42,567 nucleotides of DNA, from the sequence record SRR31156797_1634; one strand, given 5' to 3'. Position 1 is the first letter of the stretch; each line of letters starts with the position of its first letter. The notes beneath the pieces were generated by a model. It had not been told where the DNA came from and made no database searches. It saw only the letters and a list, made by a program, of their open reading frames with translations. Positions 1,790 to 37,643 of the stretch are shown piece by piece. The translations under genes were made by a program, and so were the position numbers.

Positions 1790-1793
1790 ACAG

Positions 1794-2659: not shown

Positions 2660-2666
2660 GTGCACC

Positions 2667-5205: not shown

Positions 5206-5220
5206 TTCGGGGCGGCCATT

Positions 5221-6144: not shown

Positions 6145-6167
6145 CCATTCTTTATAACGAGGCAAAA

Positions 6168-6413
6168 TTGCATACTAAACTGAAAGAGCTACTTATTGAA
6201 GAGCTGAATCTTGTCGACGTAACCGTAGACGAAATTGAAGATGACGCGCCCCTGTTCGGTGAAGGACTGGGCCTTGATTCACTGGACGCTGTGGAAATTG
6301 TCGTTCTGGTTCAGAAGAATTTCAATGTGGAAATCAAAAATATGGAAGAAGGCAAGGCAGCCTTCCTGTCCGTGAACAGCCTTGTGAATTTCATCAAGGA
6401 AAAACAGGCTTAA
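6168..6413 (+). CDS. Acyl carrier protein
   Basis: LFGEGLGLDSLDAVE phosphopantetheine site. TTG 6168 follows GAGG; alternative start is ATG 6135. Confidence 0.9.
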   Translation: MHTKLKELLIEELNLVDVTVDEIEDDAPLFGEGLGLDSLDAVEIVVLVQKNFNVEIKNMEEGKAAFLSVNSLVNFIKEKQA

Positions 6414-6417
6414 TTTC

Positions 6418-8486: not shown

Positions 8487-8489
8487 TCC

Positions 8490-10693: not shown

Positions 10694-12637
10694 ATGCACG
10701 GCTGGGCAGGATGGATTTTACGGGTTGATCTGAGCAGTGGAAAAATCAACAGAATCCCCCTTGAACCTGACATTGCGCGTAAATTCATCGGCGGACGGGG
10801 ATTGAATTCACTAACCTTATTTAATGAAATCAACCCGCACATCGATCCTCTTTCCCCTGAGAATGTATATTGCTTCGGAGCTGGTCCCCTATCCGGAACA
10901 CCTTTGGGACTGACCAGCCGAGTGGAAATCAGCACCCTTTCCCCGTATTCCGGCATACTTGGTGACGGCAATGCCGGCGGTTCTCTTGCATTCATGATGA
11001 AACGGGCCGGATTGGACCAGATTATTATCAGCGGACAGGCCGACACTCCCTGCTACCTGCTGGTGGAAGACGGACGGGCTGAACTGCGTGATGCTGAGGA
11101 ATTATGGGGACTCTCGGTCTGGGAAGCCACTGACAAATTGCAGGAAAAGCACGGTAAATCAGCCAGCGTGGCCTGCATCGGTCAGGCCGGAGAAAATCTG
11201 GTCCGGGTGGCGACCACCATGGTAGAGAAATACGCTTCCGCCGCCCGAGGTTCAGGGGCGGTGCTCGGTTCCAAAAGACTCAAGGCCGTTGTGGTCAAAG
11301 GCAGCGGGCGGGTCTCGCTGGCAGACCCTGATAGATTCAAAAAACTTGCAAGCGAAGACCGTAAATTTTTCAAAGAATCCGATTTCCAGCGCGAAGTAGT
11401 GGGACAGTATGGAACACACATCGGAATGATGATGTGGGAACCGGGCTTCCGCAATTACGAAAAGTACTGGGACGGTAAGGATGTACCGGACAAGCTGCGT
11501 CCCGAAGCATGGAAAAAGTTCTCGCTGGGAAGACATGGCTGCCACGGCTGCCATGTGCGTTGCAAAGATTATTACCGCATCCCCTCCGGATCCCGTGCCG
11601 GGGAAACCGGTAAGGCCATGGAATATGAATGTATCTTCTGCCTCGGCACCAATTGCGGCATCACCGATCCGATAGCAATCATGGAGATGGAAAACATCTG
11701 CGATGCTTACGGAATGGATGTGCTGGCCCTCGGGAACACCGTGGCTATGCTCAAGGATTTATACAGCCGGGGATTGATTGATGATAAATTTACCGATGAA
11801 CTTGACCTGAGCTGGGAAAACCACACCGACCAGATCGAACTGCTGCACCGCACTGCCATGCGCCAAGGGCTGGGTAATCTCGTAGCGGAAGGTATGTACA
11901 CCCTCGCCAAGCGGCTTGGCGGTCAGGCCATGGATTATTGCTACCACGTCAAAGGACTCTCGCGCGGCCCTTACCCTAGTGGGGTTTTCTCGCTTTCCCA
12001 CGCAACCTCAACCCGTGGTGCCGACCACTTGCGCGGACGTTCATGGGCCTTCAGTCAGCCGGACCCGGACATGTTTCCAATCCTTAAAGAACAAGGACTG
12101 CTGCTGGAAAATGTAGATAAAGATCCGGCCCCGGCAGTCATTATCGGCGAACGCATGACCACTCTGACCGACTGCATAGGACGCTGCAAAGGGGCGGTCA
12201 ACAATTGGATCAGTGCCATGCCTCTGGTCTGGAAGAAACCCATTTTCGAAGGATTGGCCGAGCTGCTCAGCGCAGCCACCGGATTCAATTACAGCACCGA
12301 AAAACTAGAGCAGGCGGCTGATCGTGTTTACGCGCTGGAACATGCTTTCAACATCCGACAGGGAACCTCCCGCAAGGACGACCGTATGCCTCAGAAACCG
12401 GAAATCCGCGACACAGAAAAAGGAAAGGCCGACCTGCGCCAGCACGAACAGCACTTAAGCCGCTACTACAAGCTACGCGGCTATGACCAGCAAGGTCGTC
12501 CCACCCCTGAACGGCTCAAGAAGCTGGAACTGGAATTTGTATCCCAAGTTCTAGCAGAGAGTCCGGCCCGCAAAGAATGGGACGGACCGCCCATGTGGAA
12601 ACTGGAAAACTATCCCCATGGGGGAAAGCGTTGCTAA
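10694..12637 (+). CDS. aor: Aldehyde:ferredoxin oxidoreductase family protein (W/Mo-pterin)
   Basis: ATG 10694 follows GAGGAGG. Motifs: GWAGWILRVDLS, FIGGRG, CIGQAGENLV, GSKRLKAV, CHGCHVRC, EYE, DAYGMD, RGADH. Confidence 0.88.
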   Translation: MHGWAGWILRVDLSSGKINRIPLEPDIARKFIGGRGLNSLTLFNEINPHIDPLSPENVYCFGAGPLSGTPLGLTSRVEISTLSPYSGILGDGNAGGSLAFMMKRAGLDQIIISGQADTPCYLLVEDGRAELRDAEELWGLSVWEATDKLQEKHGKSASVACIGQAGENLVRVATTMVEKYASAARGSGAVLGSKRLKAVVVKGSGRVSLADPDRFKKLASEDRKFFKESDFQREVVGQYGTHIGMMMWEPGFRNYEKYWDGKDVPDKLRPEAWKKFSLGRHGCHGCHVRCKDYYRIPSGSRAGETGKAMEYECIFCLGTNCGITDPIAIMEMENICDAYGMDVLALGNTVAMLKDLYSRGLIDDKFTDELDLSWENHTDQIELLHRTAMRQGLGNLVAEGMYTLAKRLGGQAMDYCYHVKGLSRGPYPSGVFSLSHATSTRGADHLRGRSWAFSQPDPDMFPILKEQGLLLENVDKDPAPAVIIGERMTTLTDCIGRCKGAVNNWISAMPLVWKKPIFEGLAELLSAATGFNYSTEKLEQAADRVYALEHAFNIRQGTSRKDDRMPQKPEIRDTEKGKADLRQHEQHLSRYYKLRGYDQQGRPTPERLKKLELEFVSQVLAESPARKEWDGPPMWKLENYPHGGKRC

Positions 12638-14334
12638 TCAGTCCATAGTCCGGTGAAACCAAATGCCTCCACATCCACTAATCCCCGGTCAGTAAGTTTC
12701 AGGCTGGGGATTACCGGGAGGGCTAAGAAAGAAATGAGCATGAAAGAATTATAGGAACAACCAAGTTTCCCAGTAGCCCGGTCCAGTTCGCGTACCCCGT
12801 CAGCCACATCTGCAAGCCCTTTGTCACTCATGAGTCCGGCCACAGGCAAAGGCAAGGTAGCAAGAACACTACCTTCACGGACAACTGCAAACCCGCCCCC
12901 CATGCGTACGACTTCCCGTGCGGCCATAACCATGTCCGCATCATTCATCCCGGCAACAATCAGGTTGTGGGAATCATGGGCCACTGTTCCGGCAATAGCT
13001 CCGTGAGCAAGCCCCAGCCCGCTCACAAATCCGGTGGCGCGGTTGCCTGTAGCCCGATGCCGTTCGATGACCGTAAGCTTGCAGATATCCCGTGCGGGGT
13101 CGGCAATGGGAATGCCTCCCTCAAGCAGCGGTTCCACTACCAGATTTTCTGTCAGCAATTGCCCGTGGGAAGTGCCGATAACCCGGATTTTCCCGCTGCC
13201 CTTTTCCGGTGCAAACATGGATTCATCAATTTCTGACCCCACATGCATGGAACTGCGCACAGGCAATCCATTGCCGGATTCAAAGCTATATTCATCCAAA
13301 GGCACGCCATCCAGAAAAACTTCATGGATAGCAAAATCCTTAAGGTCATCCACCAAAAAGCAATTGGCTCGAAAACCCGGACCAATTGCCCCATAACCGT
13401 TTAAACCGAAGTAGCGGGCCGGATTGATGGAAACCATCTGCACTGCCCTAAGCGGGTCCATACCCAAAGCAACGGCTCGGCGTAAACCGTAATCAAGATG
13501 CCCGTTCTCGCACAGGTCCAGCACGTTGCGGTCGTCAGTAACGATGGAAATATTCTGGGAATTGAAATCATTGACCACGCCGAGCAGGTCTTCCATGTTC
13601 CGCTCAAGAGAACCTTCACGCATCATCAGGTGCATGCCCGCGCGCAGCTTCTCCATTGCTTCTGTAGTATTGGAACATTCGTGATCGCTACGCGGTCCGG
13701 CAAGCACATAGCCGTTCAAGTCCATGCCTGAAAGAAGCGGGGCATGACCGTCAATAATCTTGCCCGCGGCAGCCTTAAGCTTAAAAAGAACCGACTCATC
13801 TCCGGCAAGTACTCCGGGAAAATTCATCATCTCAGCCAGCCCCAGAATCCTGTCTGGATAAAGGCGCAGAAAATGCTCCACATCAATGGAGCTGAGCCGT
13901 GCGCCGGAATCCTCCAAAGCAGTAGCAGGAACGCAGGAGGGAAACATGAAAAATATGGACACAGGCAGGTCGCGGGAGCTCTTAAGCATATATTCCACTC
14001 CCACCCGGCCCAAGACATTAGCAATTTCATGGGGATCGCAAACCACAGCAGCCGTGCCGTGTTCAGCCACTGCCCGGGCAAAACGGGGCGGGGTCAGCAA
14101 AGTAGATTCAATATGAATATGCCCTTCCACCAACCCCGGAAGCAGGAACCGTCCATTGGCATCATACTCGCGTTTGCCCTCATAAGCACCGAACCCCAAA
14201 AACAAACCTTCAGCAATACCTACATCCGCTTGATGAATTTCCCCGCTGAGAACATTGAGCACCCGGCAATTACGAATAACCAGATCAACTTTTCCTGATC
14301 CACGGGCCAAATCAATCATTCGGGCCAGCTGCAT
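12634..14334 (-). CDS. ade: Adenine deaminase
   Basis: PGLVEGHIHIES, DPHEIANV, LAEMMNFPGV, DGHAP, SDHEC, VTDD and AHDSHN motifs. ATG 14334 follows GGAGGGGG. Confidence 0.92.
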   Translation of the reverse strand: MQLARMIDLARGSGKVDLVIRNCRVLNVLSGEIHQADVGIAEGLFLGFGAYEGKREYDANGRFLLPGLVEGHIHIESTLLTPPRFARAVAEHGTAAVVCDPHEIANVLGRVGVEYMLKSSRDLPVSIFFMFPSCVPATALEDSGARLSSIDVEHFLRLYPDRILGLAEMMNFPGVLAGDESVLFKLKAAAGKIIDGHAPLLSGMDLNGYVLAGPRSDHECSNTTEAMEKLRAGMHLMMREGSLERNMEDLLGVVNDFNSQNISIVTDDRNVLDLCENGHLDYGLRRAVALGMDPLRAVQMVSINPARYFGLNGYGAIGPGFRANCFLVDDLKDFAIHEVFLDGVPLDEYSFESGNGLPVRSSMHVGSEIDESMFAPEKGSGKIRVIGTSHGQLLTENLVVEPLLEGGIPIADPARDICKLTVIERHRATGNRATGFVSGLGLAHGAIAGTVAHDSHNLIVAGMNDADMVMAAREVVRMGGGFAVVREGSVLATLPLPVAGLMSDKGLADVADGVRELDRATGKLGCSYNSFMLISFLALPVIPSLKLTDRGLVDVEAFGFTGLWTD

Positions 14335-14379
14335 ACCCCCTCCGGCGTTAAAATAGATCAAAATGATCACTTCACTTTG

Positions 14380-14409
14380 ATTTTAACACCTTTCTGCCGA
14401 GTATGACAG
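14380..14409 (-). promoter_or_regulatory. Possible sigma70-type promoter for ade
   Basis: Minus strand reads CTGTCA-N18-TAAAAT with a TG extension, within the fliD-ade gap. Confidence 0.3.
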
Positions 14410-14430
14410 CTTTGCCAAGTGTAAGTCAGG

Positions 14431-16173
14431 TTACTTTTTAGCTCCACTGCCCAGCTTGGCAATCTGCCCCTGCAGCATTTTCAGCTTTCCGCCATAGTTG
14501 GACAGCACAGCATCAAGACGGGCATATTTTGCTTTAAGGGTTTTCTCCAGATTTTCCAGACGGGTCTTCTCATAATCAAGTTTCTTATCAATATTCTTAA
14601 TAATTCCGCTGTAATTTTCGCTGATGATGTTCAGGATACCTGTCTTGGAGTTGGTCATATCCTTCAGGGTCTCAATCATTTCAATTGTTTTCCCGGTCTT
14701 GATGCCAGCGGTGCCTGAATATGTACCATCACTCTTGTTATCCACCCGAATAGCCATACCTAACCCGGACATATCATCGGCAGTAATTTCCCATCCGGAA
14801 ATCCGCGCAGCTTTGCCATTGATAGTAGCAGAAGTTATTTTACCGCCGCTGACGGTATATGAAACTTCGTGACTTCCGGGCTTAGTGACCCCTTTGACTA
14901 AAGACTTAATCGTAAAATTCGGAGAACTGGTGCTGGCTTCATAATCAGCGGAAAAGAGCTTGGCCACCCCGTCCGGATTATCTTTCATGGCTTTTTCAAA
15001 TTTTTCATCATCAATCTTCAACAATCCAAAATTGGGTGAACTCTGGTCTGTCTCTGTTTCAATGCCAAGGGTACTCAATGTGTTGTATTTGTCTCCGGTT
15101 CCGGTTTTGCCATTATAATTATTAAACCCCTGTCCCTTTGTGGCGGTAATATCCTTAAAACGATGAGAAGCCAGTTGAACTCCATAATTCCCGGTAAGAA
15201 TAGAGCCTTTATCCTTGTCTTTTGTTGTATCAACCTTGGAAATATCACGCAGAGCCTGGCGCACCACATTCACCTGCTTAACAAATTCGCGCACGTTTTC
15301 AATAATCTTCTCGGTATCGGTATTTACGTTGATTATGACCGAGTCCGGGGAAGTGGTTTTTTTCAGATTAAGGGTCAGGCCCTTGGAACCGTCGGTAACT
15401 GTGTTGGTATCACGTTCAATCCAATTAGCGGCCCCTTCAGGAAATCCATCAATCTTAATTTTAGAATTCTGACCTTGCTGCAGATTGGTCATAGACGCTG
15501 GCGTAAGGGCACCAAGAGTGGTGGCACTATTGAAAGTGATGCGGTTAGCCTCCCCCATTTTCAAGCTGCTGAATTTGAGACGAAACTCACTCCCGGTCTT
15601 AATAGCTTCCACCTGCACCAAGCCCTGCAACTCCGTAGTGGCATTAAGCATCTTAACCAGCCCCTGAACGGTTGTTCCTCCCGGAACATCAATATTTGCA
15701 GTCTTGCCCCCGCAACTGAGGCTGATCTTGCTGGCCGTGGGAGAAATGACATCCTTTTCCGATGCAAACCCGGAGCTGGAAGTCCAGATATCATTACGGG
15801 CAAGTTGCTTGATCTCAACTTTGTAAGGCGAAGTGGGCGCTGTGCTGTCTGCTGTGGCAGTTACACATGATGAATCTGAAGAAGAAGTAACCCGGCCCAT
15901 AAATTTACCGATGGAATCCATCTTTTTAAGCGAGGAACTCAACTCGGTCATCTTAGTGTTGAGATCCTTGAGACTTTCCTGTTTCTTAACCCACTGAGAT
16001 TTCCAATTCTCCAGCCTGCGTTGGTGGAAGCCCTGTTGCTTGATGGTATTTTTTACAATCTCCCCAAAATCAGTCCCGTTACCCAGCTTTTCGAACTTGG
16101 TTTTCCCGGACCAGTAACTGGAGGTTGTCCCGGCGGTGGAGACCTGTGCCCCTACTTTTCCTACATCTGCCAT
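14431..16173 (-). CDS. fliD: Flagellar filament cap protein
   Basis: LGNGTDF N-terminal motif, VEIKQLA, and C-terminal coiled coil ...LKAKYARLDAVLS. Confidence 0.9.
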   Translation of the reverse strand: MADVGKVGAQVSTAGTTSSYWSGKTKFEKLGNGTDFGEIVKNTIKQQGFHQRRLENWKSQWVKKQESLKDLNTKMTELSSSLKKMDSIGKFMGRVTSSSDSSCVTATADSTAPTSPYKVEIKQLARNDIWTSSSGFASEKDVISPTASKISLSCGGKTANIDVPGGTTVQGLVKMLNATTELQGLVQVEAIKTGSEFRLKFSSLKMGEANRITFNSATTLGALTPASMTNLQQGQNSKIKIDGFPEGAANWIERDTNTVTDGSKGLTLNLKKTTSPDSVIINVNTDTEKIIENVREFVKQVNVVRQALRDISKVDTTKDKDKGSILTGNYGVQLASHRFKDITATKGQGFNNYNGKTGTGDKYNTLSTLGIETETDQSSPNFGLLKIDDEKFEKAMKDNPDGVAKLFSADYEASTSSPNFTIKSLVKGVTKPGSHEVSYTVSGGKITSATINGKAARISGWEITADDMSGLGMAIRVDNKSDGTYSGTAGIKTGKTIEMIETLKDMTNSKTGILNIISENYSGIIKNIDKKLDYEKTRLENLEKTLKAKYARLDAVLSNYGGKLKMLQGQIAKLGSGAKK

Positions 16174-16185
16174 GGCCTTTCTCCC

Positions 16186-17679
16186 TTACATATAATTGAG
16201 GATGGACATTTCATTAATCATCCGCGAACTGCGGGCCACGACCTCATAGATAAGCTTACTCTGCTTTAACTCACTGAGCAGTTCCCCAAGATCGGCATCT
16301 TCCAGCCTGCTAAGAAGAGTTGTGTTGTTGTCCTTACGGATATCTGCCAGTTTTTCGGCACTGGCCGCCCGGTTCATGCGCGCGCCTATTTCTGCGGCTT
16401 TCATTTCCACATGCTCATGGACTTTTTTCAATTCGGCCACGCATTCACCGATGCCATTCTTGTCATTTGTCTCAACGTAACCGATCAGCTTACCCAATGT
16501 TTCAAAGAGGTTGCTGTTCTTGTCGTCTGGAGAAGGAGTCGGGTTTGAAGCTCCGGGCTTGGTATAAATCCCGCCAAAAATTTCCTTGCCCACATTGTTG
16601 ACCCGTATGGAACGGCTCTGGGAGATATCAAGACGCAAGTCTGCAGTATTGGGGCGAATAACAAACTGGTCGCCCTTGTTGAAGGTAGTGCCTGCACCGG
16701 GAGAGAGAGTCAGACTGCCGCCGGGAACTTCAAGGCGGGTATCTGCGGAAACATTGGAATGAACCCAGCTGGCCCCATTATCAAGACTGTAGGAATAGGT
16801 GATGGGCGGAGTGTTTACGTCCCCGTTTTTATCGATTTGAACCAACACATCTGAATGAAATTTACCATCAGCCCCAGTATTGACTTGGGTATTCCCATAC
16901 TTGATGACATTTAGATCATCGTTATCATCCCCGTGATACTGAAGAGCTGGACGGACGATCAGCCGACTCCCGGTTCCCTTGTCCGTAAATTCAGTGACTG
17001 CGGTCCCGTTCTTCAGTTCCACTGTAGCCGGACCAAGATCAAGTTCAGTATCTCCGGGATTCAAAGTGCCGGTTTTCCATGTCTTGCCGCCGTCGGAACT
17101 ATATTTATAGTTGATGGTATCGGTGCCCACGGTTCCGCCGGAAGTGAAACGGACATCCACCGAACTATCCGAAGCACCTTTCACAGCAACAACAGATCCC
17201 GCAGGCAGGTTCGGATCGGTTGTTGTGGCATGCAGGGTTTGCTCGTAAGCGTTGGTCTCCAACTTATGTCCGGCAAAAATGGATTTGCCCCCGAACTCGG
17301 TATTGGACTTATTGAGCAGATTGCCCAGAATCCCGCGCAAATTCTGGCCGATGGAACGACGCTGTTCAGCGGTCAGAGTTCCGGTAGCAGCCTGTTCAGC
17401 TAAAGTCTTGATACGTCCGATATCAGTACTGGTCTGCTGCAGCACTCCGTCAGCCAGACTCAGCCAGCTGGAGGCGGTCTTGATGTTCTTAATGTACTGC
17501 TTGGTCTCCAACCCGAAGGAACGGCAATTGATAATTCCACCCATGGCCGCCGGATCATCAGAAGGGACCAGCACCCTCTTCTGCGCGGAGTTACGCATCT
17601 GCGCCTCAGCCATGCGACTCATGGATGAGTTCAAGTTATAAAGCGACATGTTGAAAATCTGATTAGTAGAAATCCTCAT
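16186..17679 (-). CDS. flgL: Flagellar hook-associated protein 3
   Basis: MRIST start, PSDDP, IFAGHK and IGARMNR...LEDADL; position directly after flgK. Confidence 0.9.
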   Translation of the reverse strand: MRISTNQIFNMSLYNLNSSMSRMAEAQMRNSAQKRVLVPSDDPAAMGGIINCRSFGLETKQYIKNIKTASSWLSLADGVLQQTSTDIGRIKTLAEQAATGTLTAEQRRSIGQNLRGILGNLLNKSNTEFGGKSIFAGHKLETNAYEQTLHATTTDPNLPAGSVVAVKGASDSSVDVRFTSGGTVGTDTINYKYSSDGGKTWKTGTLNPGDTELDLGPATVELKNGTAVTEFTDKGTGSRLIVRPALQYHGDDNDDLNVIKYGNTQVNTGADGKFHSDVLVQIDKNGDVNTPPITYSYSLDNGASWVHSNVSADTRLEVPGGSLTLSPGAGTTFNKGDQFVIRPNTADLRLDISQSRSIRVNNVGKEIFGGIYTKPGASNPTPSPDDKNSNLFETLGKLIGYVETNDKNGIGECVAELKKVHEHVEMKAAEIGARMNRAASAEKLADIRKDNNTTLLSRLEDADLGELLSELKQSKLIYEVVARSSRMINEMSILNYM

Positions 17680-17688
17680 CTCAGCCTC

Positions 17689-19773
17689 CTACTTAAGCGA
17701 AAGCAACGTTTCGAACATTTCGTTGGCAGTTTTAATCAGCTTGGAAGCAGTCTGAAACGAGCGCTGATAGCTGGTGATAATATCCATCTCTTCATCAATA
17801 CTGACCCCGCCCACAGATTCCTGTTTATCCACCAGCCCCTTAAGAACTGTCTGGGATATAGACAGGTTGGCCTTGGCATCAGCCGTGTGCGAACCGACAG
17901 TAGACACAAGGGAGGAATAGAAATCATTGAAGCTGGACTCAGTGGATGTTCCCCCGGCCTTAAAGTTGATGTTCTTCTTTCCGGCAAGAGCAGCCACCGC
18001 CCGCGCGGTGCTATTATCACCCTTGTTAACTTCCCCGGCTCCATTCACATGGGCAGCAGCAACCTTTGATGGATCAGCCTCAATGGATGAATGCACTTTA
18101 ATGGAAGTGGCATCATGCCCTTCAAAGAAAGTATTGAGTCCCAATCCGGCCAACACTCCACTGCTGTCGTTGGAAAACTGGAACCGATTATCACCCAGCC
18201 CTTTGATGGAAAGCTTGCCGTTGGTGATCACGGCCTGAGCTTTTCCGGGGAAACTGGCATTTATGGCGTCACGGACATTTTCAAGGGAATGAACTGCGGG
18301 ATCAAAATTTGTTTTTCCCGGTGCAATGGAGGAGAAATCCACAGCTGAAACTGAAACTTTATTTCCGGTATTGGCATTGTAAAAAGCCATGCTGAAGCTG
18401 CCCGAAGTAAGCTTGTCCGCATAAGGCAGATTGCTCTTGGCAAGGGGGACAGAGCTATCACGCACCTCGTAGGTTCCGATGGTATTGGCATGATTGACCA
18501 GCCCCGCCCCCTGTGAATGGGCGCGGTTAACTTCCCAAGCAATGGATTTAGCGAACGCATTCAACTTATCAATGTAAGAACCGATCTTCTCATCACGAGC
18601 ACGGAGCAGTCCGGCAATAGAACCGCCTTTCAAACGGCGTTCACCATTATTTCCGGCGAGGGGACTTACTGATTCCGAAGTGGAGCTGTTCCGGTACCAG
18701 CGAACTTCTGTCTTCGGAGTCAAGGTGAAACGGTCCCCATCCTTGAGCTGAGTAGTGGCCGCGCTGGCACTGCTGCCCGCTTTACCGAACCAGAGTTTGA
18801 CCCCGCCCACGGTCACGGCATCATTCTGCCCTCCGGCATTGAACAATTTTTCGCTGCCGTCCGGGTTACTGATCCAGGTCTTGCCGCCATCCCGCGAAAC
18901 CTTGAACTGCGCTGCCGGGGCTACGCCGGAGGCATTACCATTGCTGACCACCTGAATGGTCAATTCTTCACCGGACTGGCCGCTGAAATGGACTTCATCC
19001 TTGAAAGGGGAACCAAGAACCAATGAATTACGGACTCCGCCCTGTTCAAACTTCAGTTCAAAAGCTTTATCTCCCTCAACCAGCTTCTGCCCTTCGCCCA
19101 GTGAAACAATGACCTGACCGGAAGGCTCTTCCTGCACACTGATATCCACCAGTGAAGACAGTCCGCGCAGCACCACATCCCTGCGATCCAGCAAAGTATT
19201 GTCCTTGGGATTGGCAATGATCTGTTTATTCAGCTCAGCCAGTTCCTTGATAGCGTCATTGGCCTTGCCAACTTCCTGCTTCAAATGACTGGTGATCAAA
19301 TCCTGCTGGCGGCGCAGGTCTCCCACAACCGAACCCAGCTGGGCGGAAAACTTCTGAGCCGCGCCAACAAGGGCAACCCTGTTCGCACCCAACTGCGGAT
19401 TATTGGCAAGAGATTGCCATGCAGCCCACATGTCGCCCATGGATTTGCTGATTCCGGCGTCTTTGCTTTCCACAAAGAACTTCTCAACCATGGAAAGGTT
19501 ACCGGCCTCAGCATTCCAGCGCGAAAATTCCGGACTTTTGGCCAGCACTCCCTGCTCAAGGAACTGGGACAGATTTCGCCTGATACTATCAACGGACGCC
19601 CCGGTACCGTAAGACCAGCGACCTTCCCTGATCGACATGCTCTCGTCCTGAATAACGGTCCTGCGCCGGTATCCGGGGGTCTTAAGGTTAGCTACGTTGT
19701 TACCGTGAACAGACAAGCCTATCTGGGCGTTCTGCATGGCTCCGCGGCCTATGGAAAATATATTGCCAAGCAT
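17689..19773 (-). CDS. flgK: Flagellar hook-associated protein 1
   Basis: GNNVANLKTPGYRR, LLDRRD, GGSIAGLL and GVSIDEEM...YQRSFQTASKLI. Confidence 0.92.
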   Translation of the reverse strand: MLGNIFSIGRGAMQNAQIGLSVHGNNVANLKTPGYRRRTVIQDESMSIREGRWSYGTGASVDSIRRNLSQFLEQGVLAKSPEFSRWNAEAGNLSMVEKFFVESKDAGISKSMGDMWAAWQSLANNPQLGANRVALVGAAQKFSAQLGSVVGDLRRQQDLITSHLKQEVGKANDAIKELAELNKQIIANPKDNTLLDRRDVVLRGLSSLVDISVQEEPSGQVIVSLGEGQKLVEGDKAFELKFEQGGVRNSLVLGSPFKDEVHFSGQSGEELTIQVVSNGNASGVAPAAQFKVSRDGGKTWISNPDGSEKLFNAGGQNDAVTVGGVKLWFGKAGSSASAATTQLKDGDRFTLTPKTEVRWYRNSSTSESVSPLAGNNGERRLKGGSIAGLLRARDEKIGSYIDKLNAFAKSIAWEVNRAHSQGAGLVNHANTIGTYEVRDSSVPLAKSNLPYADKLTSGSFSMAFYNANTGNKVSVSAVDFSSIAPGKTNFDPAVHSLENVRDAINASFPGKAQAVITNGKLSIKGLGDNRFQFSNDSSGVLAGLGLNTFFEGHDATSIKVHSSIEADPSKVAAAHVNGAGEVNKGDNSTARAVAALAGKKNINFKAGGTSTESSFNDFYSSLVSTVGSHTADAKANLSISQTVLKGLVDKQESVGGVSIDEEMDIITSYQRSFQTASKLIKTANEMFETLLSLK

Positions 19774-19806
19774 GGTGTGCTCCTGTGCCTACGGCAATTA
19801 AATTAA

Positions 19807-21396
19807 TTATCTCTTCAACTGAATCAATTCGCCTAAAAGCTGATCAGCTGTAGTGATCGCCTTACTATTGGCCTGAAAACCGCGCTGGGTGGTGATCAGC
19901 TTGACCATTTCATCCCCCACATCGACGTTGGATTGCTCCAATTTGTTGGAGGCGATGGACCCCAGCGGGCCTGTTCCGGCACGTCCTGTCAATGCAGGGC
20001 CGGAATCGCGGGTCTTGGAGAAAAGATTTCCCCCTTCGCGGCGCAACCCGTACTGGTTGTTGAAGTTGGCGAGAGTAAGCACATAGAGATCGAGCACCTG
20101 ACCATTGGAATAACGACCGGTGACAACGCCGTCGCGATCGACCTCCACGGCCTGAAGGAACCCCGCTCCGTAACCGTTCTGGGACTGGGAGTTACGGGCA
20201 TTACCGGTATCGTAGGAAGTTGAATAAGAGGCACTCCGTTTGGGAGAACTGAAGTTGGGGACCTTTGCCAAAGTAGTGCCTACGGTAGAGGCATCAGCAG
20301 GTGTCGGGGTGGACCAAGTGGGCGGATTGCTGCCGTTGCTCAAACCGAAATCAAGGGTAATGGGATTAGCTTTAGCGTCAGTAGCAAGGTTGGCATTAGC
20401 CTTTCCAAGGAAATTGGCAGTAAAAATGGGCTTACCGGACTCTGACATAGGCGAGGGAGTCCAGTTATTAAGATTCTGCATCCCCCCTGTGGCACCGCCT
20501 TTGAGAGAGAAGGAACTCATGCCGATCATCTCCCCGCGCGGGTTGAAAGTCATGGTTCCGGTCATGAGCAATCCGGCAGCGGAAGTTGTTTTCAAGGCAG
20601 TACCACCGATTGTCCGGCCATCCTCGTTAGGCGGTACAGTAACGATAAATTCATAAACCCTGTTACCAGCAGCATCAGTGGTAACGGTGTTGTCCTTGAC
20701 CGGGTCAAAATAGATAGTCAGGTCATGGGAGGTTCCGCTTTCATCAAAAGTCTTGATGGTGTTCTGAAAGGCATAGCGGTCTGCCGGAAGGGGCGGATTA
20801 TTTTTCCCGTTCCAAGTTTGATGCAGAGAAAAGAACGGCTGTCCGGCCACGTTGCATTTGTCCTCGGCCTTGGAGCTGAGGTTGACGTTCATAGCAATAT
20901 CGGAGGTACGCACCGGCGGCGACTGAAAACGGTCCAGTTTAATATCTGTGGGAGTACCGATGATGTCCGGTTTACCGCTTTCGGAATTAGGATTGACCTT
21001 CCAGCCCTGCACTACATAGCCGTGAGGATCAGTAAGTACACCCTGCTTGTTGAAGATAAAATTCCCGGCCCGGGTATAATAAGTTGCATCAGTGTCCGGG
21101 TGACGGACGGAGAAAAAGCCCTTGCCGCCAATAGCTACGTTTGTGGCCTCAGACGATGGCTCGAAGGGGCCCTGCTTGAAATCACCGTAGATGGAAGCGA
21201 TGCCGACACCATGGCCGACCTGCCCGAGCCCAGCGCCGGTGTTGACCGCGCTGTAAAAAGCATCTTCAAAAGAAGTACGCGCTCCCTTAAAACCGATGGT
21301 GTTGCCGTTGGCAAGGTTGTTGCCGATAATGCTCATAGCCTGACTGTGAGCACGGATGCCGCTGATACCGTTATACATTGATCCTTTCAAACCCAT
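19807..21396 (-). CDS. flgE: Flagellar hook protein
   Basis: IGNNLANGNTIGFK, YYTRAGNF and LEQSNVD...LITTQRGFQANSK. Confidence 0.95.
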   Translation of the reverse strand: MGLKGSMYNGISGIRAHSQAMSIIGNNLANGNTIGFKGARTSFEDAFYSAVNTGAGLGQVGHGVGIASIYGDFKQGPFEPSSEATNVAIGGKGFFSVRHPDTDATYYTRAGNFIFNKQGVLTDPHGYVVQGWKVNPNSESGKPDIIGTPTDIKLDRFQSPPVRTSDIAMNVNLSSKAEDKCNVAGQPFFSLHQTWNGKNNPPLPADRYAFQNTIKTFDESGTSHDLTIYFDPVKDNTVTTDAAGNRVYEFIVTVPPNEDGRTIGGTALKTTSAAGLLMTGTMTFNPRGEMIGMSSFSLKGGATGGMQNLNNWTPSPMSESGKPIFTANFLGKANANLATDAKANPITLDFGLSNGSNPPTWSTPTPADASTVGTTLAKVPNFSSPKRSASYSTSYDTGNARNSQSQNGYGAGFLQAVEVDRDGVVTGRYSNGQVLDLYVLTLANFNNQYGLRREGGNLFSKTRDSGPALTGRAGTGPLGSIASNKLEQSNVDVGDEMVKLITTQRGFQANSKAITTADQLLGELIQLKR

Positions 21397-21423
21397 GAGA
21401 ATCTCCTTTCGGTAAAAAAATAA

Positions 21424-22086
21424 TTAAGCAACAACTCTTGTCACGTTGGACAAAAGCACCTTGCGGCCATCTTCAAGCTCCAGAATATTTTGGCCACCAG
21501 CCGTATTAACGGCTTTGACCTTTCCGGAGACTTCAATATTGGCGAGAACTTTTTTACCTTTGGGGGATTCCGCACGAACTGCGATCCTGTACTGACCGTC
21601 ATCTGCGGCATTGCCGTCTTTATCGTTACCATCCCATTGAAAATCAAATTTTCCGGCAGCCTTGCTACCCATTTCCACAGAGCGGATCAATCCACCGTCT
21701 TTATCATAAATGTCCACATAAACAGACTTGCAGGCTACAGGGAGGGAGATGTTGGCGGAAGTGATATCCGAACCATCTTTGGCCACACCGAATCCTTTGG
21801 CCATGACTGACTTGCCGATGTAACCGGTAGCGTTAACACCGATCACGGTCTTAACTGTCTCAGTCAGGCCATCCATTGCCTTGGAAATATTGGTGAGTCT
21901 TTCAACGGTAGAAAACTGGGCCAGCTGAGCCAGCTGTTCCTTGTTGTCCATGGGATTGACGGGGTCCTGATTCTTGAGTTGGGTAACAAAAAGTTTCAGG
22001 AAAGCGTCTTTGTTAAGATCCTTACTGGGAGTCTTAGGCTTGGCGTTCTTATTTACATTATTTAAATACGTAGTGGCGTCGATCAT
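21424..22086 (-). CDS. flgD: Flagellar hook cap (scaffolding) protein
   Basis: FLKLFVTQLKNQDPVNPMD...QLAQFS and FQWDG motifs; AGGAGG RBS. Confidence 0.95.
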   Translation of the reverse strand: MIDATTYLNNVNKNAKPKTPSKDLNKDAFLKLFVTQLKNQDPVNPMDNKEQLAQLAQFSTVERLTNISKAMDGLTETVKTVIGVNATGYIGKSVMAKGFGVAKDGSDITSANISLPVACKSVYVDIYDKDGGLIRSVEMGSKAAGKFDFQWDGNDKDGNAADDGQYRIAVRAESPKGKKVLANIEVSGKVKAVNTAGGQNILELEDGRKVLLSNVTRVVA

Positions 22087-22100
22087 GATTTCCTCCTGTT

Positions 22101-22245
22101 CTGCACAACAGCTTGGGTCCGGCGTGAAATACGCAAGACAAGTTGATGCGCCTCAAGGAGGCAATCAGCCTATGAACCGGGATTCGGCATGATCAAGGCA
22201 GGAAAGAAACAGTTGATGAAGGGGTAACTGTTTCCAGCTGTGCAG
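22101..22245 (-). other. Candidate structured RNA leader upstream of flgD
   Basis: Closing stem CTGCACAGCTGG / CCAAGCTGTTGTGCAG with bulges; 9-bp hairpin at 22206-22234; small hairpin GCCTC-CTT-GAGGC at 22150-22162. Confidence 0.4.
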
Positions 22246-22279
22246 ACGTGAGAGGAAGTGGGTTGGGGAGGTCTTTCTA

Positions 22280-22594
22280 TCACGCCATGACCTTGAACTC
22301 CCGGTCATTATCGTTATCTGAATCTTTTTCTTCAACAAGCTCCTTGGCTTTTTCAATGCAGTGTCCGCCGAAAGGGGCGACTACCGCTCCTTGGAGGTTG
22401 CGCCTCATCTCCATGACAGCCTTTCTGCAAGACTGGCACTCAGCAAGATGGGCCTCAAGGCTGCTGACCTGTTCATCGGTAGCAGTTCCGTCGAGATACA
22501 TGCATATCTCATCGATTTCCGGGCAGGCAGGAGTCGGTCCGAAAGGAAGGTCCTTATCCGTGCGGCTGCAACTTTTACGTCCGGTTCCGTCCAT
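22280..22594 (-). CDS. Small soluble zf-HC2 (ZAS) anti-sigma-factor-like protein
   Basis: YLDG...LEAHLAECQSC (HxxxCxxC), no transmembrane segment, directly downstream of an ECF sigma gene, GAGGTG RBS. Confidence 0.82.
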   Translation of the reverse strand: MDGTGRKSCSRTDKDLPFGPTPACPEIDEICMYLDGTATDEQVSSLEAHLAECQSCRKAVMEMRRNLQGAVVAPFGGHCIEKAKELVEEKDSDNDNDREFKVMA

Positions 22595-22667
22595 GGAACA
22601 CCTCGTGTTGTTTTGTCTGCCGATTCATCCATGCACCGACAGGGTTTGCTGTGTCCATTAAATCCAT
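22584..22667 (-). promoter_or_regulatory. Cluster of CsrA/RsmA-type ANGGA sites in the anti-sigma leader
   Basis: Four ATGGA within about 80 nt. Two lie in ANGGAN hexaloops: GTTCC-ATGGAC-GGAAC (22584-22599, contains the start codon) and TGTCGGTGC-ATGGAT-GAATCGGCA (22618-22641). Confidence 0.6.
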
Positions 22668-22689
22668 AAAAAGAATTTAATTTACGACA

Positions 22690-23277
22690 CTAACGGGTCA
22701 GTACATAAGATTCTCCACTGACTCCGTGGTAGGAACGAAGCTTAATCAGGGCCTTATGCTTGGCGCTCCTGACTGACTGTTCCTTGATTCCGATAAAATC
22801 GGAAATTTCTGAAATATCTAGCCCGTCCTCAAAGAAAAGCTTCACAATAAGCTTCTGGCGAGGAGAAAGCAGCTGCTCCGGAATATCCAGTCCTTCCTGA
22901 ACCGGATCTGCAGGAGCCTCAAGTTCGTTAATAAAGTCATCCAAAGGAGCTAAACAATACACCCCCTTGCGCAAAAAATCCATGGTCACACTTCTGGAAA
23001 TGACCATCAGCCAGGTTGTAAGCTTGGCTTTATGTGGATCATATCTTTTTAACAGACTTCTATCATTCTGTACAAGACGCAGGAAAACGTTCTGACAAAT
23101 ATCATCAGCATGATGCGGAGAGTAGAACTTAAGCTTACTCTTTAATGTATTATTGATGGTAAAATAAATTATCCCAGAATATTTTTCCACAAAAGTATTC
23201 CAAGAGGACCTATCACCTTCAGTACACTTTCTGATAATATTTACTATTGCCTTCTGTTCTAAGCTCAAAACAATCAC
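22690..23277 (-). CDS. ECF-family sigma-70 factor
   Basis: Region 2 (ADDICQNVFLRL...LTTWLMVISRSVTMDFLRK) and region 4 (LSPRQKLIVKLFF...SEISDFIGIKEQSVRSAKHKALIKLR). GTG start is uncertain. Confidence 0.88.
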   Translation of the reverse strand: MIVLSLEQKAIVNIIRKCTEGDRSSWNTFVEKYSGIIYFTINNTLKSKLKFYSPHHADDICQNVFLRLVQNDRSLLKRYDPHKAKLTTWLMVISRSVTMDFLRKGVYCLAPLDDFINELEAPADPVQEGLDIPEQLLSPRQKLIVKLFFEDGLDISEISDFIGIKEQSVRSAKHKALIKLRSYHGVSGESYVLTR

Positions 23278-23808
23278 CCGATGTCTTTGTTTAATGCTTC
23301 TTAATACTTTCCCTTCATCATAACAGGCTGATTGCCTCCATGGGCATTCTTACAACTGTATACGCAAGGAAAAACCGAAACATCCCCACCTACTTAATCA
23401 AAACTTGATAAAAACTAATCTTTCTTAATTTAATCAAGTCAAAACAAGACCTTAACGGAAACAACTTTTTTCCATTTTACCGAGGGATAAAGACTCATGT
23501 CCCTTACTCATTAAATCCGGCGCGAGGCTGATTTTTCAAAGTAAGCTCATGCCGTAAATACGAGAAACGTATTTGAACTTGAATGAAATCAAAAAAAGTC
23601 CACGCTGATATTCAAAATTGGCAGGAAAGAAACCTGCCGGATTGGTTGTAAGTCAACTTTATATAACTTTATAAATCATCTCAATAGGCAATATTTTCCG
23701 CACATTATAACACAAGAAGAGCATCAAGCCTTGCACTCAAAAAAGCTCATATCTTCAACAGGTTTAACCCAAACAACATCAAGAAAAAGACTTTATCACC
23801 ACAACTTA

Positions 23809-23837
23809 TTGACAAGATAAGTCGCATGGGGCAATAT
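23809..23837 (+). promoter_or_regulatory. Putative sigma70 promoter of the gal operon
   Basis: TTGACA (23809-23814), 17-bp spacer, CAATAT (23832-23837), immediately followed by LacI-type operators. Confidence 0.55.
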
Positions 23838-23841
23838 TTCC

Positions 23842-23877
23842 GAAAACGTTTGCGGTTACGTTTGCACAATCGTTTGC
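23842..23877 (+). promoter_or_regulatory. Three tandem 12-bp LacI-family operator-like boxes
   Basis: GAAAACGTTTGC / GGTTACGTTTGC / ACAATCGTTTGC; a LacI-family gene lies in the operon. Confidence 0.65.
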
Positions 23878-23900
23878 AGAATTCGGAGCAAAGATCAAAA

Positions 23901-24947
23901 ATGAGTAATAATTTTCAAGATTACCCGCATAAAAGATTCAATCCCCTAACCGGGGAATGGGTGCTTGTTTCCCCACATCGCACCAAACGCCCATGGCAGG
24001 GCAAACAGGAAAAACCTTCCCGCAACACCCTGCCTGTTTACGACAACAAATGTTACCTCTGCCCCGGAAACACCCGTAACCAAGGTGCGAGCAATCCTGA
24101 GTACACAGATGTTTTTATTTTCGATAATGACTTCCCCGCCCTGCTCCACGAATCTGTGGACGGCTTCAGTGACGACGATCTTTTTAAAGTTGAACCGGAG
24201 AACGGAGTCTGCCGAGTAGTCTGCTTCTCGCCCCGTCATGACCTGACCATCTCACGCATGCGTCCTGAAAATGTACGCAAAGTAATTGATGCATGGTGCG
24301 ACCAGTATAAAGAACTGGGGGAACGTGAAGATATCGGCTACGTACAGATTTTTGAAAACCGGGGAGACATCATGGGTTGCTCCAACCCGCATCCCCACGG
24401 CCAGATCTGGGCCACCCGCTCCACTCCGGTTATCCCCAAAGCTGAAGATAAGCGCCAGCGGGAGTACCTGGATAAACAAAGGCAATGTTTACTCTGCCGC
24501 TACGTTGAGCGGGAGCTTAAAAAGAAAGAAAGGGTCATTTTCGAGAATGATTCCTTTGTCTCCCTTGTTCCTTTCTGGGCGGTCTGGCCCTTTGAAACCA
24601 TGCTGTTGCCCAAAGCCCACATGGGCGCAATTACTGACATGACTCCGACCCAGCGCGAAGACCTTGCAAATGCGCTGGTGCGCATGGGCATCCGTTACGA
24701 TAATCTTTTCGAAACATCTTTCCCCTACTCCATGGGCATCCACCAGCGCCCGACACAAAACAACAAGAAAGAACACTGGCACTGGCACATCCACTACTAT
24801 CCGCCCCTGCTGCGTTCGGCCACAGTGAAAAAATTCATGGTCGGTTTTGAAATGCTGGGCATGCCTCAACGAGACATCACAGCAGAACAAAGCGCCCAGC
24901 GACTGCGCGACCTGCCGGAAACCCATTATCTGGACCGTGGTGAATAG
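23901..24947 (+). CDS. galT: Galactose-1-phosphate uridylyltransferase
   Basis: RFNPLTGEWVLVSPHRTKRPWQG, CYLCPGN and GCSNPHPHGQIW. ATG 23901 follows GGAG. Confidence 0.95.
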   Translation: MSNNFQDYPHKRFNPLTGEWVLVSPHRTKRPWQGKQEKPSRNTLPVYDNKCYLCPGNTRNQGASNPEYTDVFIFDNDFPALLHESVDGFSDDDLFKVEPENGVCRVVCFSPRHDLTISRMRPENVRKVIDAWCDQYKELGEREDIGYVQIFENRGDIMGCSNPHPHGQIWATRSTPVIPKAEDKRQREYLDKQRQCLLCRYVERELKKKERVIFENDSFVSLVPFWAVWPFETMLLPKAHMGAITDMTPTQREDLANALVRMGIRYDNLFETSFPYSMGIHQRPTQNNKKEHWHWHIHYYPPLLRSATVKKFMVGFEMLGMPQRDITAEQSAQRLRDLPETHYLDRGE

Positions 24948-24948
24948 C

Positions 24949-26271
24949 ATGCATTCTATCGATGCTTACCGTGAACATCTGGAACAGGGCGGTTTTGACA
25001 AGCAATTCAGCCTGATCCATTCCTGCACCAGAATTGAAGAATCGCGGGAGCGCATGCGCAGACTCATGCTCTGCATGCTTGAAAATTTTGACCCCGATGA
25101 AATCTGCTTTGCCAGCGCCCCGGGACGCACTGAGCTGGGCGGCAACCACACCGACCACAACCACGGGCACGTGCTGACCGCAGCAGTTAATCTGGACTGT
25201 CTAGCCGCATTTTCCAAAGCTGAAAATAATGTGGTTACCATTGTCTCTGAAGGGTACAAGCCCATCAAAGTAAATATTTCCGACACAGATCCGCACGAAG
25301 ACGAATATGAAACCAGCGCCGCCATTGTGCGCGGTGTAGCCGACGGTTTCCGTAAACTGGGATTAAATATAGGTGGTTTCAACGCATGCGTACACAGCAC
25401 CATCCCTGCCGGAGCAGGACTTAGTTCATCGGCAGCTTTTGAAGTGCTGGTAGGCCGCATTTTCAACTATCTATTCAATGACAACAAAATTGGCCCACTG
25501 GAAATCGCCAGTATTGCCAAGCAGGCCGAAAATATTCATTTCAACAAGCCCTGTGGATTCATGGACCAGATGGCCTCCTCTTATGAAGGAATCCTGTCCA
25601 TAGACTTTACCGATCCCGCTGATCCGGAGGTAACCCGAGTGGAGCCGGATTTTAAAACCGACAGCTGTGCTGATGGATTTTACGGAACCGGATACCGGCT
25701 CTGCGTAATTGAGACCGGAGGCAGTCACGCCGACCTGACCCCGGATTACGCAGCTATTCCAGAAGAAATGTTTCAAGCCGCTGAATGTTGCGGGCAGGAA
25801 CATGCCAAAGGACTGACCCTGAACAGAATACTGGGAAATATTGACTACATCCGCGAGAACGCCGGAGATCGCGCTGTGCTGCGACTCCTACATTTCATCG
25901 GCGAAGATGAACGAGCTGTGAAACAAGGCCAAGCCCTGCATAAAGGGGATATGCCTGAATTCCTGCGCCTTGTTGCCGAGTCCGGCCATTCGTCCAGAGA
26001 CCTGCTGCAAAACTGCTACAGTCCTGCCACCCCTAAAAGACAGCCCATCCCGCTAGCCCTTACCCTGACCAAACAGATTCTCGGTGCACACGGAGTGGGC
26101 CGGGTCCATGGCGGAGGATTTGCGGGAACCATCCAAGTCTATGTTCATGAGTCTGATTTCAACAGGTACAGCCGTTCCATGAAAAATATTTTCGGCGAAA
26201 ATTCAGTCATTGAATTGTCTATCCGCCAACCGGGCCACGAATTTCTAACTATCCCTCAAAACAGGACGTAA
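24949..26271 (+). CDS. galK: Galactokinase
   Basis: APGRTELGGNHTDHNHG, PAGAGLSSSAA, CGFMDQ and GGGFAG. Confidence 0.92.
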   Translation: MHSIDAYREHLEQGGFDKQFSLIHSCTRIEESRERMRRLMLCMLENFDPDEICFASAPGRTELGGNHTDHNHGHVLTAAVNLDCLAAFSKAENNVVTIVSEGYKPIKVNISDTDPHEDEYETSAAIVRGVADGFRKLGLNIGGFNACVHSTIPAGAGLSSSAAFEVLVGRIFNYLFNDNKIGPLEIASIAKQAENIHFNKPCGFMDQMASSYEGILSIDFTDPADPEVTRVEPDFKTDSCADGFYGTGYRLCVIETGGSHADLTPDYAAIPEEMFQAAECCGQEHAKGLTLNRILGNIDYIRENAGDRAVLRLLHFIGEDERAVKQGQALHKGDMPEFLRLVAESGHSSRDLLQNCYSPATPKRQPIPLALTLTKQILGAHGVGRVHGGGFAGTIQVYVHESDFNRYSRSMKNIFGENSVIELSIRQPGHEFLTIPQNRT

Positions 26272-33833: not shown

Positions 33834-33857
33834 TTTTTTTTAATACAGGATAGAACC

Positions 33858-35912: not shown

Positions 35913-36001
35913 GCCACCTCACGTACTGGGATTAAGAATATGCACTATTAAAATTAACACAGCACTGCTTGTTTTTCAAACTACTGAACTACAAATATAT
36001 C

Positions 36002-37642: not shown

Positions 37643-37643
37643 C

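Follow-up and report, generated by a model that had tools for sequence, protein, structure and literature searches.

A conserved hook-to-cap flagellar gene module with its own ECF sigma factor and ZAS anti-sigma factor in Desulfovibrionales

We have analysed a 42,567-nt stretch of DNA from sequence record SRR31156797_1634, which is referred to below in its full length as the window. Seven of its genes encode a sigma factor of the extracytoplasmic function (ECF) type, an anti-sigma factor of the zinc-binding ZAS class and five proteins of the flagellum, FlgD, FlgE, FlgK, FlgL and FliD. We conclude that this locus is a real, conserved ECF-switched hook-to-cap module of Desulfovibrionales. It is probable that the module makes paralogous hook-to-cap parts as one regulatory and structural unit. 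The features of the locus are as follows (window coordinates, in the direction of transcription).

23361..23385, minus strand: ECF-type promoter GGATGTT-N14-CGTA, with the -10 element 84 nt 5' of the sigma start codon
22690-23277, minus strand: ECF-type sigma factor, 195 aa, GTG start; Pfam Sigma70_r2 and r4; TIGR02937 59.6 bits against a cutoff of 42.9
22280-22594, minus strand: ZAS anti-sigma factor, 104 aa; zf-HC2 PF13490 29.8 bits against a cutoff of 22.2; motif HLAECQSC
22087..22279, minus strand: anti-sigma/flgD spacer, 193 nt, with a conserved box at 22155-22167
21424-22086, minus strand: flgD (hook cap/scaffold), 220 aa; Pfam FlgD, FlgD_ig and FlgD_tudor
19807-21396, minus strand: flgE (hook protein), module-type paralogue, 529 aa; TIGR03506 317 bits
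17689-19773, minus strand: flgK (hook-filament junction protein 1), 694 aa; TIGR02492 293 bits against a cutoff of 171
16186-17679, minus strand: flgL (hook-filament junction protein 3), 497 aa; TIGR02550 193.5 bits against a cutoff of 127
14431-16173, minus strand: fliD (filament cap), 580 aa; Pfam FliD_N and FliD_C

The original prediction, made from the letters of the window, described seven co-oriented genes with gaps of 9-33 bp between the flagellar ones. All seven are confirmed on the minus strand, with families assigned by Pfam and NCBIfam, and the gaps measure 27, 33, 9 and 12 bp; two larger gaps that it had left out are the 95 bp between the sigma and anti-sigma genes and the 193 bp between the anti-sigma gene and flgD. 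Pfam domains are matched by all five axial proteins. FlgK, FlgL and FlgE (the last in the general FlgE/F/G subfamily model) exceed their NCBIfam cutoffs, and for FlgD and FliD the equivalog models are matched below cutoff only. NCBIfam flagellin models score far under cutoff on the FlgL of the window. No other flagellar gene is present in the window, as had been claimed: none of the 30 remaining open reading frames (ORFs) scanned matches a flagellar family.

The predicted affiliation with Desulfovibrionaceae agrees with the closest relatives of the sigma factor, which are from Maridesulfovibrio. A protein carrying the name of Maridesulfovibrio salexigens shares 96% of its residues (38 of 125 candidates were significant). 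Fourteen cluster relatives of the sigma factor share at least 70% identity with it, the named ones all being Maridesulfovibrio or 'Desulfovibrio sp.' JC010 and JC022, and below these the identity falls to 41% or less. Judged by this sigma factor, the source organism is a Maridesulfovibrio near M. salexigens.

For comparison we used 80 flgE loci (L001 onwards), an arbitrary subset of at least 601 stretches that matched a FlgE alignment in a genome profile search. L005 is from the complete genome of Maridesulfovibrio sp. LRMN2 (NZ_CP182344.1); M. salexigens, Maridesulfovibrio sp. FT414 and the module locus of LRMN2 lie outside the set. When the seven window proteins were run against these loci by tblastn, a homologous sigma factor was found in exactly four, L001 (87% identical) and L006, L008 and L010 (37-40%). 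Its gene is no more than about 4 kb away from the module in each of the four module loci, and none of the 76 others has it. L001 ends 30 nt past flgE, and its sigma factor, anti-sigma factor, FlgD and FlgE are 87, 78, 86 and 92% identical to those of the window. A flgK gene adjoins flgE only in the remaining three of these loci, which are arranged as follows.

L006: sigma gene (37% identical) divergent upstream; OmpR-type regulator; 7TMR-DISM kinase; ZAS protein; flgD-flgE-flgK-flgL-fliD
L008: sigma-like and small ZAS-like genes upstream on the same strand; flgD-flgE-flgK-flgL, with no fliD homologue after flgL; second ZAS gene and homologous sigma gene (40%) convergent downstream
L010: arrangement as in L008 but with a fliD homologue after flgL; homologous sigma 38% identical

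The placement of the sigma gene thus varies between upstream on the same strand, divergent upstream and convergent downstream. The ZAS gene lies about 30 bp or less from flgD in L006 and L008, and the FlgD of the window is 40-44% identical to the FlgD of L002-L008 (tblastn). Two paralogous sigma/ZAS pairs flank the module in L008 (5650-6485 and 12512-13527) and in L010 (8191-9124 and 17534-18522). Because the gene set and a homologous sigma recur in four of the 80 loci, and in those four only, the linkage goes beyond chance; a synteny check therefore upholds the gene linkage on which the original prediction was built. The module's neighbours in the window are ade and gal genes; L008 has cheY and cheA there, L010 an RND pump and cheB, and L006 holB. 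The flanks differ in every lineage, and therefore the module travels as a unit. From these comparisons the module appears to be old, conserved and probably mobile in sulfate reducers. When the window is compared with L001, dN/dS is 0.048 in the sigma gene, 0.19 in the anti-sigma gene, 0.097 in flgD and 0.037 in flgE; these four genes are under purifying selection. No basal-body, export or motor genes were found in the window or in the Pfam-scanned parts of the L006, L008 and L010 flanks. Likewise no flagellin or FliS gene was found in the window or the scanned parts of these three loci, where the FlgL tblastn search matched flgL alone.

The position of the ZAS gene also sets these loci apart. 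The ORF directly upstream of flgD encodes FliK in 59 of 65 loci (58 above the Pfam cutoff). It is a zf-HC2 protein in L001, L006 and L008, and in L010 it is ZAS-like by blastp only; in L026 and L079 the ORF has no family match. The ZAS gene of the module loci thus occupies the usual place of fliK. This prompts the question of what determines hook length if a second hook protein comes without a FliK dedicated to it.

The sequence GGATGTT-N14-CGTA at 23385-23361 occurs once in the 42.6-kb window, where 0.03 occurrences would be expected. Among the 80 loci, the strict form (GGATGTT-N14/15-CGTA) is found only in L001, L008 and L010, 84-94 nt before the first gene of the operon. With the relaxed form GGATGWW, L006 is found as well (GGATGAA, 51 nt before its ZAS gene, which adjoins flgD), together with a single stray site in L040. 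No sigma gene stands between the motif and ZAS-flgD in L006, which means that the motif heads the structural operon directly. Control of the window module by sigma-54 was considered and rejected: there is no site with three or fewer mismatches in 21400-24000, and a regular-expression search gave no match in the window. The part of the original prediction that the cluster is separately switched is therefore supported by an ECF-type promoter of its own that is conserved across lineages and by the lack of a sigma-54-like site in 21400-24000.

The sigma factor has the characters of the ECF group (group 4), namely regions 2 and 4 (Sigma70_r2, r4 and r4_2), no region 3 and a small size. A putative cognate anti-sigma factor is encoded 95 bp downstream, and a conserved promoter with a CGT-type -10 element lies upstream, as expected of an ECF sigma. 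No named ECF subfamily was reached: 45 other NCBIfam sigma models scored far below their cutoffs, the best being the BldN family (50.2 against 206). A protein atlas search with the sigma factor returned generic ECF-like clusters only, and its representative relatives number 22 at E<=1e-30, 359 at <=1e-10 and 2564 at <=1e-3. The 104-aa anti-sigma factor carries, within an N-terminal anti-sigma domain, HxxxCxxC with an upstream Cys, which defines ZAS class I, and the ligand set C24, H49, C53 and C56 is invariant in all six aligned homologues. No membrane helix was found in six small ZAS proteins, the maximal Kyte-Doolittle 19-residue mean of the window protein being 0.57. A complex of the two proteins was predicted with a score of 0.85, against 0.01 for the best of three controls; the same mark is reached by 51 of 78 solved complexes and by 2 of 108 mismatched pairs. 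The runs share at least 87% of contacts, with partner pLDDT at least 69, and the contacts involve sigma residues 18-103 and 132-163. Since complexes of this kind have already been solved, the score shows likeness, not binding, and may reflect model memory.

Among solved structures the closest chains are SigW (5wuq_A, E 1e-3) for the sigma factor and RsiW (5wuq_C, E 7e-3) for the anti-sigma factor. The best matches are thus the two chains of one complex, although both E-values are marginal. Sigma-W promoters have the -10 element CGTA, the same as here. RsiW is membrane-anchored, which the window anti-sigma factor, having no membrane helix, would not be. The invariant C...HxxxCxxC ligand set is shared with the ZAS class of SigR/RsrA and RsiW, and the window protein resembles RsrA in being soluble with little beyond the anti-sigma domain. 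NCBIfam equivalog cutoffs are not reached for RsrA (27.6 against 62.5) or SigW (37 against 243), and the known regulons of SigW/RsiW and SigR/RsrA consist of stress genes, not of flagellar parts. There is also a likeness to FliA (sigma-28) and FlgM, in which a dedicated sigma factor and a small soluble anti-sigma factor are coupled to outer flagellar genes. However, the window sigma has no region 3, and its identification as a FliA/WhiG sigma-28 was rejected: TIGR02479 (FliA_WhiG) covers residues 137-182 (region 4) only, at 25.1 bits against a cutoff of 189.6. Unlike FlgM, the anti-sigma factor here has a zinc-finger anti-sigma domain, and the unit includes hook genes. Hook genes are not known to be sigma-28 targets in enterics.

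The original prediction knew of no described system of this form. This has to be corrected, as the RpoE6/Asf6 flagellar ECF module of Azospirillum brasilense Sp7 is similar (PMC12826043, J Bacteriol, Dec 2025) and flagellar neighbours of ECF sigmas are noted in PMC7826278. RpoE6 and Asf6 control part of the Azospirillum cluster; syntenic clusters occur in Rhodopseudomonas, Bradyrhizobium and Magnetospirillum, and the alphaproteobacterial orthologues of RpoE6 are more than 50% identical (PMC12826043). RpoE6/Asf6 probably corresponds to ECF290s3 of PMC7826278, in the supplement of which flagellin, FliD and FliS are neighbours of ECF290s3, and FliJ, FHIPEP and CheR are neighbours of ECF18s9. Both systems have an ECF sigma of about 190 aa and, just downstream, a gene for a small anti-sigma factor, which interacts with its sigma in Azospirillum and is predicted to do so here. 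In both, the pair lies inside a partial cluster that comprises flgD, flgE, flgK, flgL and fliD but lacks basal-body genes. In Azospirillum the sigma gene belongs to the operon that it drives, and the same is predicted here.

Compared with RpoE6/Asf6, the present module differs in phylum, in having no flagellin or fliS, in having hook genes in the ECF unit, in its promoter elements and in its ZAS anti-sigma factor. RpoE6/Asf6 belongs to Alphaproteobacteria, the present pair to Desulfovibrionales. The genes fliC2 and fliS are among the direct targets of RpoE6, whereas neither flagellin nor fliS is found here. The RpoE6 promoter precedes fliC2, and transcription from it covers fliC2-fliD-fliS-rpoE6-asf6, whereas flgL and fliC2 are not transcribed together (PMC12826043); here the ECF promoter heads sigma, anti-sigma and flgD, so that, unlike in Azospirillum, the hook genes would be within the ECF unit. 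The promoter elements are CGCCAG/CGTGAG for RpoE6 and GGATGTT/CGTA here. The anti-sigma factor here is of the ZAS class, and the words 'zinc' and 'transmembrane' are absent from the text of PMC12826043. We found no description of the present module in the literature on Desulfovibrio and Maridesulfovibrio, with the supplement of PMC7826278 covered in part. PMC4490391, which came up as a match to 'salexigens', deals with Chromohalobacter and is irrelevant.

The ordinary flagellar locus of these bacteria, fliK-flgD-flgE(-flagellin) as in L003, L005 and others, encodes homologues of FlgD and FlgE whose domain sets are the same. It differs from the module in several ways. Ordinary FlgE proteins have 542-564 aa and fall in other clades; those of Maridesulfovibrio (L003, L005, P0079 and P0123) are 49-52% identical to that of the window. 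In L005 flgE is followed by flagellin, in the module by flgK; the ECF motif is absent from the ordinary loci among the 80, bar the stray match in L040. In L005 the context is glycosyltransferase, fliK, flgD, flgE (556 aa) and flagellin. A sigma-54-type site, TGGCACGTGCTCTGCT, is seen at L005 12109-12124, about 50 nt before the flagellin gene that follows flgE.

Are the module genes extra copies, or the only ones? In a FlgE protein search of which the best 120 of 2509 matches were listed, Maridesulfovibrio sp. FT414 has a 529-aa FlgE (78% identical to that of the window) and a 548-aa FlgE (52%), and a further relative has proteins of 530 aa (58%) and 549 aa (50%). Among these matches, the closest relatives of the window FlgE are 93, 91 and 78% identical, and M. 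bastinii, M. frigidus, M. zosterae and M. ferrireducens have only FlgE of 546-548 aa. In a tree of 34 FlgE proteins, the window protein groups with its three close relatives (100 SH-aLRT), and a nine-row clade of the long form from Maridesulfovibrio lies separately. In a tree of 36 rows made by a quick method, module FlgE is a 17-row clade (100 SH-aLRT) of 522-533 aa that includes the window, L001, L006, L008 and L010 and also takes in Desulfocurvibacter, Fundidesulfovibrio, Oceanidesulfovibrio, Desulfocurvus and others, and the fliK-linked FlgE of 542-564 aa fall outside. LRMN2 has the fliK locus and is also credited with a module-type FlgK that is 86% identical to that of the window; therefore both sets are present in it. 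L007 (fliK type) and L010 (module type) come from one metagenome-assembled genome (MAG). Second copies of the predicted FlgD and FlgE are shown by these comparisons in at least two relatives (FT414 and LRMN2) and in one more distant MAG, the FlgD paralogy being shown by adjacency to flgE. The claim of a second, separately switched kit thus holds for the regulation and for FlgD and FlgE, and its part on FlgK, FlgL and FliD is not settled by the FlgK search described below. In a tree of 35 FlgK rows, an 18-row clade (99 SH-aLRT) holds the FlgK of the window and those of L006, L008 and L010. We infer that FlgK, FlgL and FliD are extra copies as well.

Some labels in the compared records are at odds with the trees. 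L007 and L010 belong to JBKICU01, a single MAG labelled Acidobacteriota bacterium bins.101; in L010, FlgE and FlgK branch as sister to Fundidesulfovibrio (99 SH-aLRT). Likewise P0040, a FlgE 91% identical to that of the window, is named Marinifilum sp. JC120, from a Bacteroidota genus. Because these labels conflict with the gene trees, the assemblies are probably mis-binned or contaminated.

On this basis the following course of events can be proposed. The sigma factor and a cytoplasmic, zinc-binding ZAS anti-sigma factor would be transcribed from the GGATGTT-N14-CGTA promoter at 23385-23361, and transcription would most likely continue across the 193-nt spacer through flgD, flgE, flgK, flgL and fliD. 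The anti-sigma factor would keep the sigma factor inactive; on a signal, the freed sigma would drive its own operon in a positive loop. RsrA releases its sigma factor by thiol oxidation. By analogy, the simplest candidate signal for a ZAS protein that has no other domain may be thiol oxidation too. The cell would then make a paralogous hook cap, hook, two junction proteins and filament cap. As the module has no genes for an export gate, basal body, FliK, chaperone or flagellin, its products must use a type III apparatus and a flagellin encoded elsewhere, and they would be assembled on a shared basal body. For the proximal and distal extracellular parts of its flagellum, the cell would thus have an alternative under separate regulation.

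The spacer between the anti-sigma gene and flgD deserves attention, since the proposed operon must cross it. No second ECF promoter was found in it (two-mismatch matches are at chance level), nor any terminator-like site on the minus strand, and inspection by eye found no sigma-28 promoter, as the GCTGATTG box has no suitably spaced TAAA element. Rfam gave no window matches at gathering scores. A box, TGATTGCCTCCTT, at 22155-22167 is unique in the window and complementary to the ribosome-binding site of flgD. Its form (T/C)GATTG(C/T)CT(C/T)CTT is kept in Maridesulfovibrio (the window and L001 2111-2123) and in the distant L010 (~9165-9180), and L006 and L008 have no such spacer. In a consensus fold computed for the window, L001 and L010, the box is paired with the AGGAGG region; the fold draws on three sequences, two of them close, and this helix has no double compensatory change. 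From this pairing, the box may be a translational control element.

Several observations weigh against an ECF-switched unit of extra copies. The motif was spotted by eye in the same sequences in which it was counted, and since it was derived from them, its absence from the other loci is the sole independent evidence. In L008 and L010 the gene behind the motif encodes a divergent sigma-like protein (187-189 aa), 21-25% identical to the sigma of the window, which leaves the assignment of the sigma that reads it open; we infer that it is the module's own. The four module loci are a small sample from an arbitrary part of the matches. The gap between the anti-sigma gene and flgD is as wide as 193 bp, and a weak sigma-70-like site (9/12) at 22335-22307 could serve as flgD's own promoter. 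No second FlgK was found for FT414, LRMN2 and two other large contigs (123 of 8000 candidates were significant), and thus the module FlgK, FlgL and FliD may be the only copies. Finally, Nitratidesulfovibrio FlgK sits within the 18-row clade of module FlgK, and the clade may therefore not be module-specific.

The last two points lend themselves to an alternative that we regard as possible, though rather unlikely, namely that the cluster is the primary junction and cap operon. FlgK, FlgL and FliD would be sole copies, only flgD-flgE would be duplicated, and the ECF/ZAS pair would be the normal late-stage pair, acting as FliA/FlgM do. The search gave a lone FlgK on each large contig of FT414, LRMN2, 2496324 and 2383434, and likewise for Oceanidesulfovibrio marinus, and the shared clade with Nitratidesulfovibrio is in line with it. 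L008 and L010 moreover have a good sigma-54-type site about 100 nt 5' of the downstream, homologous sigma, TGGCACGCTCCCTGCT in L008 and GGGCACGCTTTCTGCT in L010, which would put this sigma in the ordinary flagellar cascade; the pattern used has 66 matches in 1.29 Mb across the 80 loci. The sites stand at L008 13647 and L010 18632. In these two lineages the arrangement with its sigma-54-type site suggests a cascade of three tiers, from sigma-54 through the ECF sigma to the module. However, the FlgK search also listed no FlgK under the names M. bastinii, M. frigidus, M. zosterae and M. ferrireducens, even though their FlgE were found. It is therefore too insensitive at that distance, and the absence of a second FlgK is uninformative. 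These four congeners, which we take to be motile, have no close homologue of the sigma factor or of module FlgE; they must then have other FlgK, FlgL and FliD, which argues against a primary operon. An Azospirillum strain without RpoE6 had no detectable swimming defect (PMC12826043), which also speaks against this reading.

We think it improbable that the module is a piece of a complete second flagellar system whose remaining genes lie elsewhere and answer to the same ECF sigma. Dual flagellar systems are familiar from Vibrio parahaemolyticus, Bradyrhizobium and Azospirillum, and the module has no flagellin, so that some flagellin must come from elsewhere. RpoE10, an ECF41 sigma, controls the lateral flagella of Azospirillum (PMC12826043). 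On the other hand, a complete secondary system of the lateral type would have a basal body, export, motor and flagellin genes of its own. None of these is present in the window or in the scanned flanks of L006, L008 and L010, and the motif occurs just once in the 42.6-kb window. M. salexigens, moreover, presumably has a single polar flagellum. The weakest alternative takes the sigma/anti-sigma pair for a mere neighbour with an unrelated stress regulon, and flgD-fliD for genes on their own promoter in the usual flagellar regulon; the 193-bp gap and the weak sigma-70-like site fit it, and ECF pairs abound (a genome has about 10 on average, PMC7826278), but we consider it very improbable because the homologous sigma accompanies the module in four of four loci and none of 76 others despite changed position and strand, the ECF-type motif of L006 stands directly before ZAS-flgD and the ZAS gene takes the place of fliK.

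The surroundings of the module are unrelated to flagella. Predicted ade and gal neighbours were confirmed by Pfam and NCBIfam, with ade (12634-14370, minus strand) and a gene for aldehyde:ferredoxin oxidoreductase on one side. The other side holds galT and galK, the gene of a LacI-type regulator, galM and genes of a sugar ABC transporter. Composition gives no indication of an island, the GC of the module (0.465-0.526) being inside the range of the window (0.427-0.546). Only 60 bp (14371-14430) separate fliD from the co-oriented ade; no terminator-like hairpin was found there, and a sigma-70-like site with an extended -10 element is located before ade at 14409-14380. Expression of ade may come from its own promoter or from partial read-through from the module. 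The galK ORF as called (24847-26271) begins at a TTG about 100 nt within galT, and its true start is therefore probably downstream. On the plus strand, positions 1-9650 hold a lipid-type gene cluster with an MMPL exporter, a thioesterase, a B12-binding radical SAM enzyme, a family-2 glycosyltransferase with DUF2062, a lipid-A-type acyltransferase, two ketoacyl-synthase-like proteins and an AMP-binding enzyme. This is presumably a cluster resembling those for aryl-polyene or unusual-lipid biosynthesis. A signalling cluster on the minus strand (34607-38870) encodes an Hpt-receiver protein, a GAF-PAS histidine kinase and an HDOD-domain protein. The minus-strand ORF at 33840-34496 has no family match, overlaps a plus-strand gene for D-lyxose isomerase and is an ORF-calling artefact.

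If a separately switched set of hook-to-cap parts is what the module provides, ECF sigma factors dedicated to outer flagellar parts would exist also outside Alphaproteobacteria, where they were first reported in 2025. The hook, junction and cap would be exchanged or supplemented as one block, which would offer a tractable test of the adaptation of a single flagellum by swapping its extracellular parts. The conserved promoter motif gives a direct handle on the regulon in any complete genome. More speculatively, and with clear doubt on our side, the module could serve a redox-gated retooling of the single flagellum in strict anaerobes: oxidation of the ZAS protein would free the sigma factor, and new flagella would be fitted with the paralogues of hook cap, hook, junction and filament cap. 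No change would be made to basal body, motor and flagellin, and the second sigma/ZAS pair with the sigma-54 promoter in L008 and L010 may form the three-tier cascade. In a bolder form of this idea, the anti-sigma factor may be exported via the flagellar apparatus and act as an assembly checkpoint like FlgM, one stage earlier. In strict anaerobes, the presence of a ZAS anti-sigma factor hints that the structure of the motility apparatus may be tied to redox stress.

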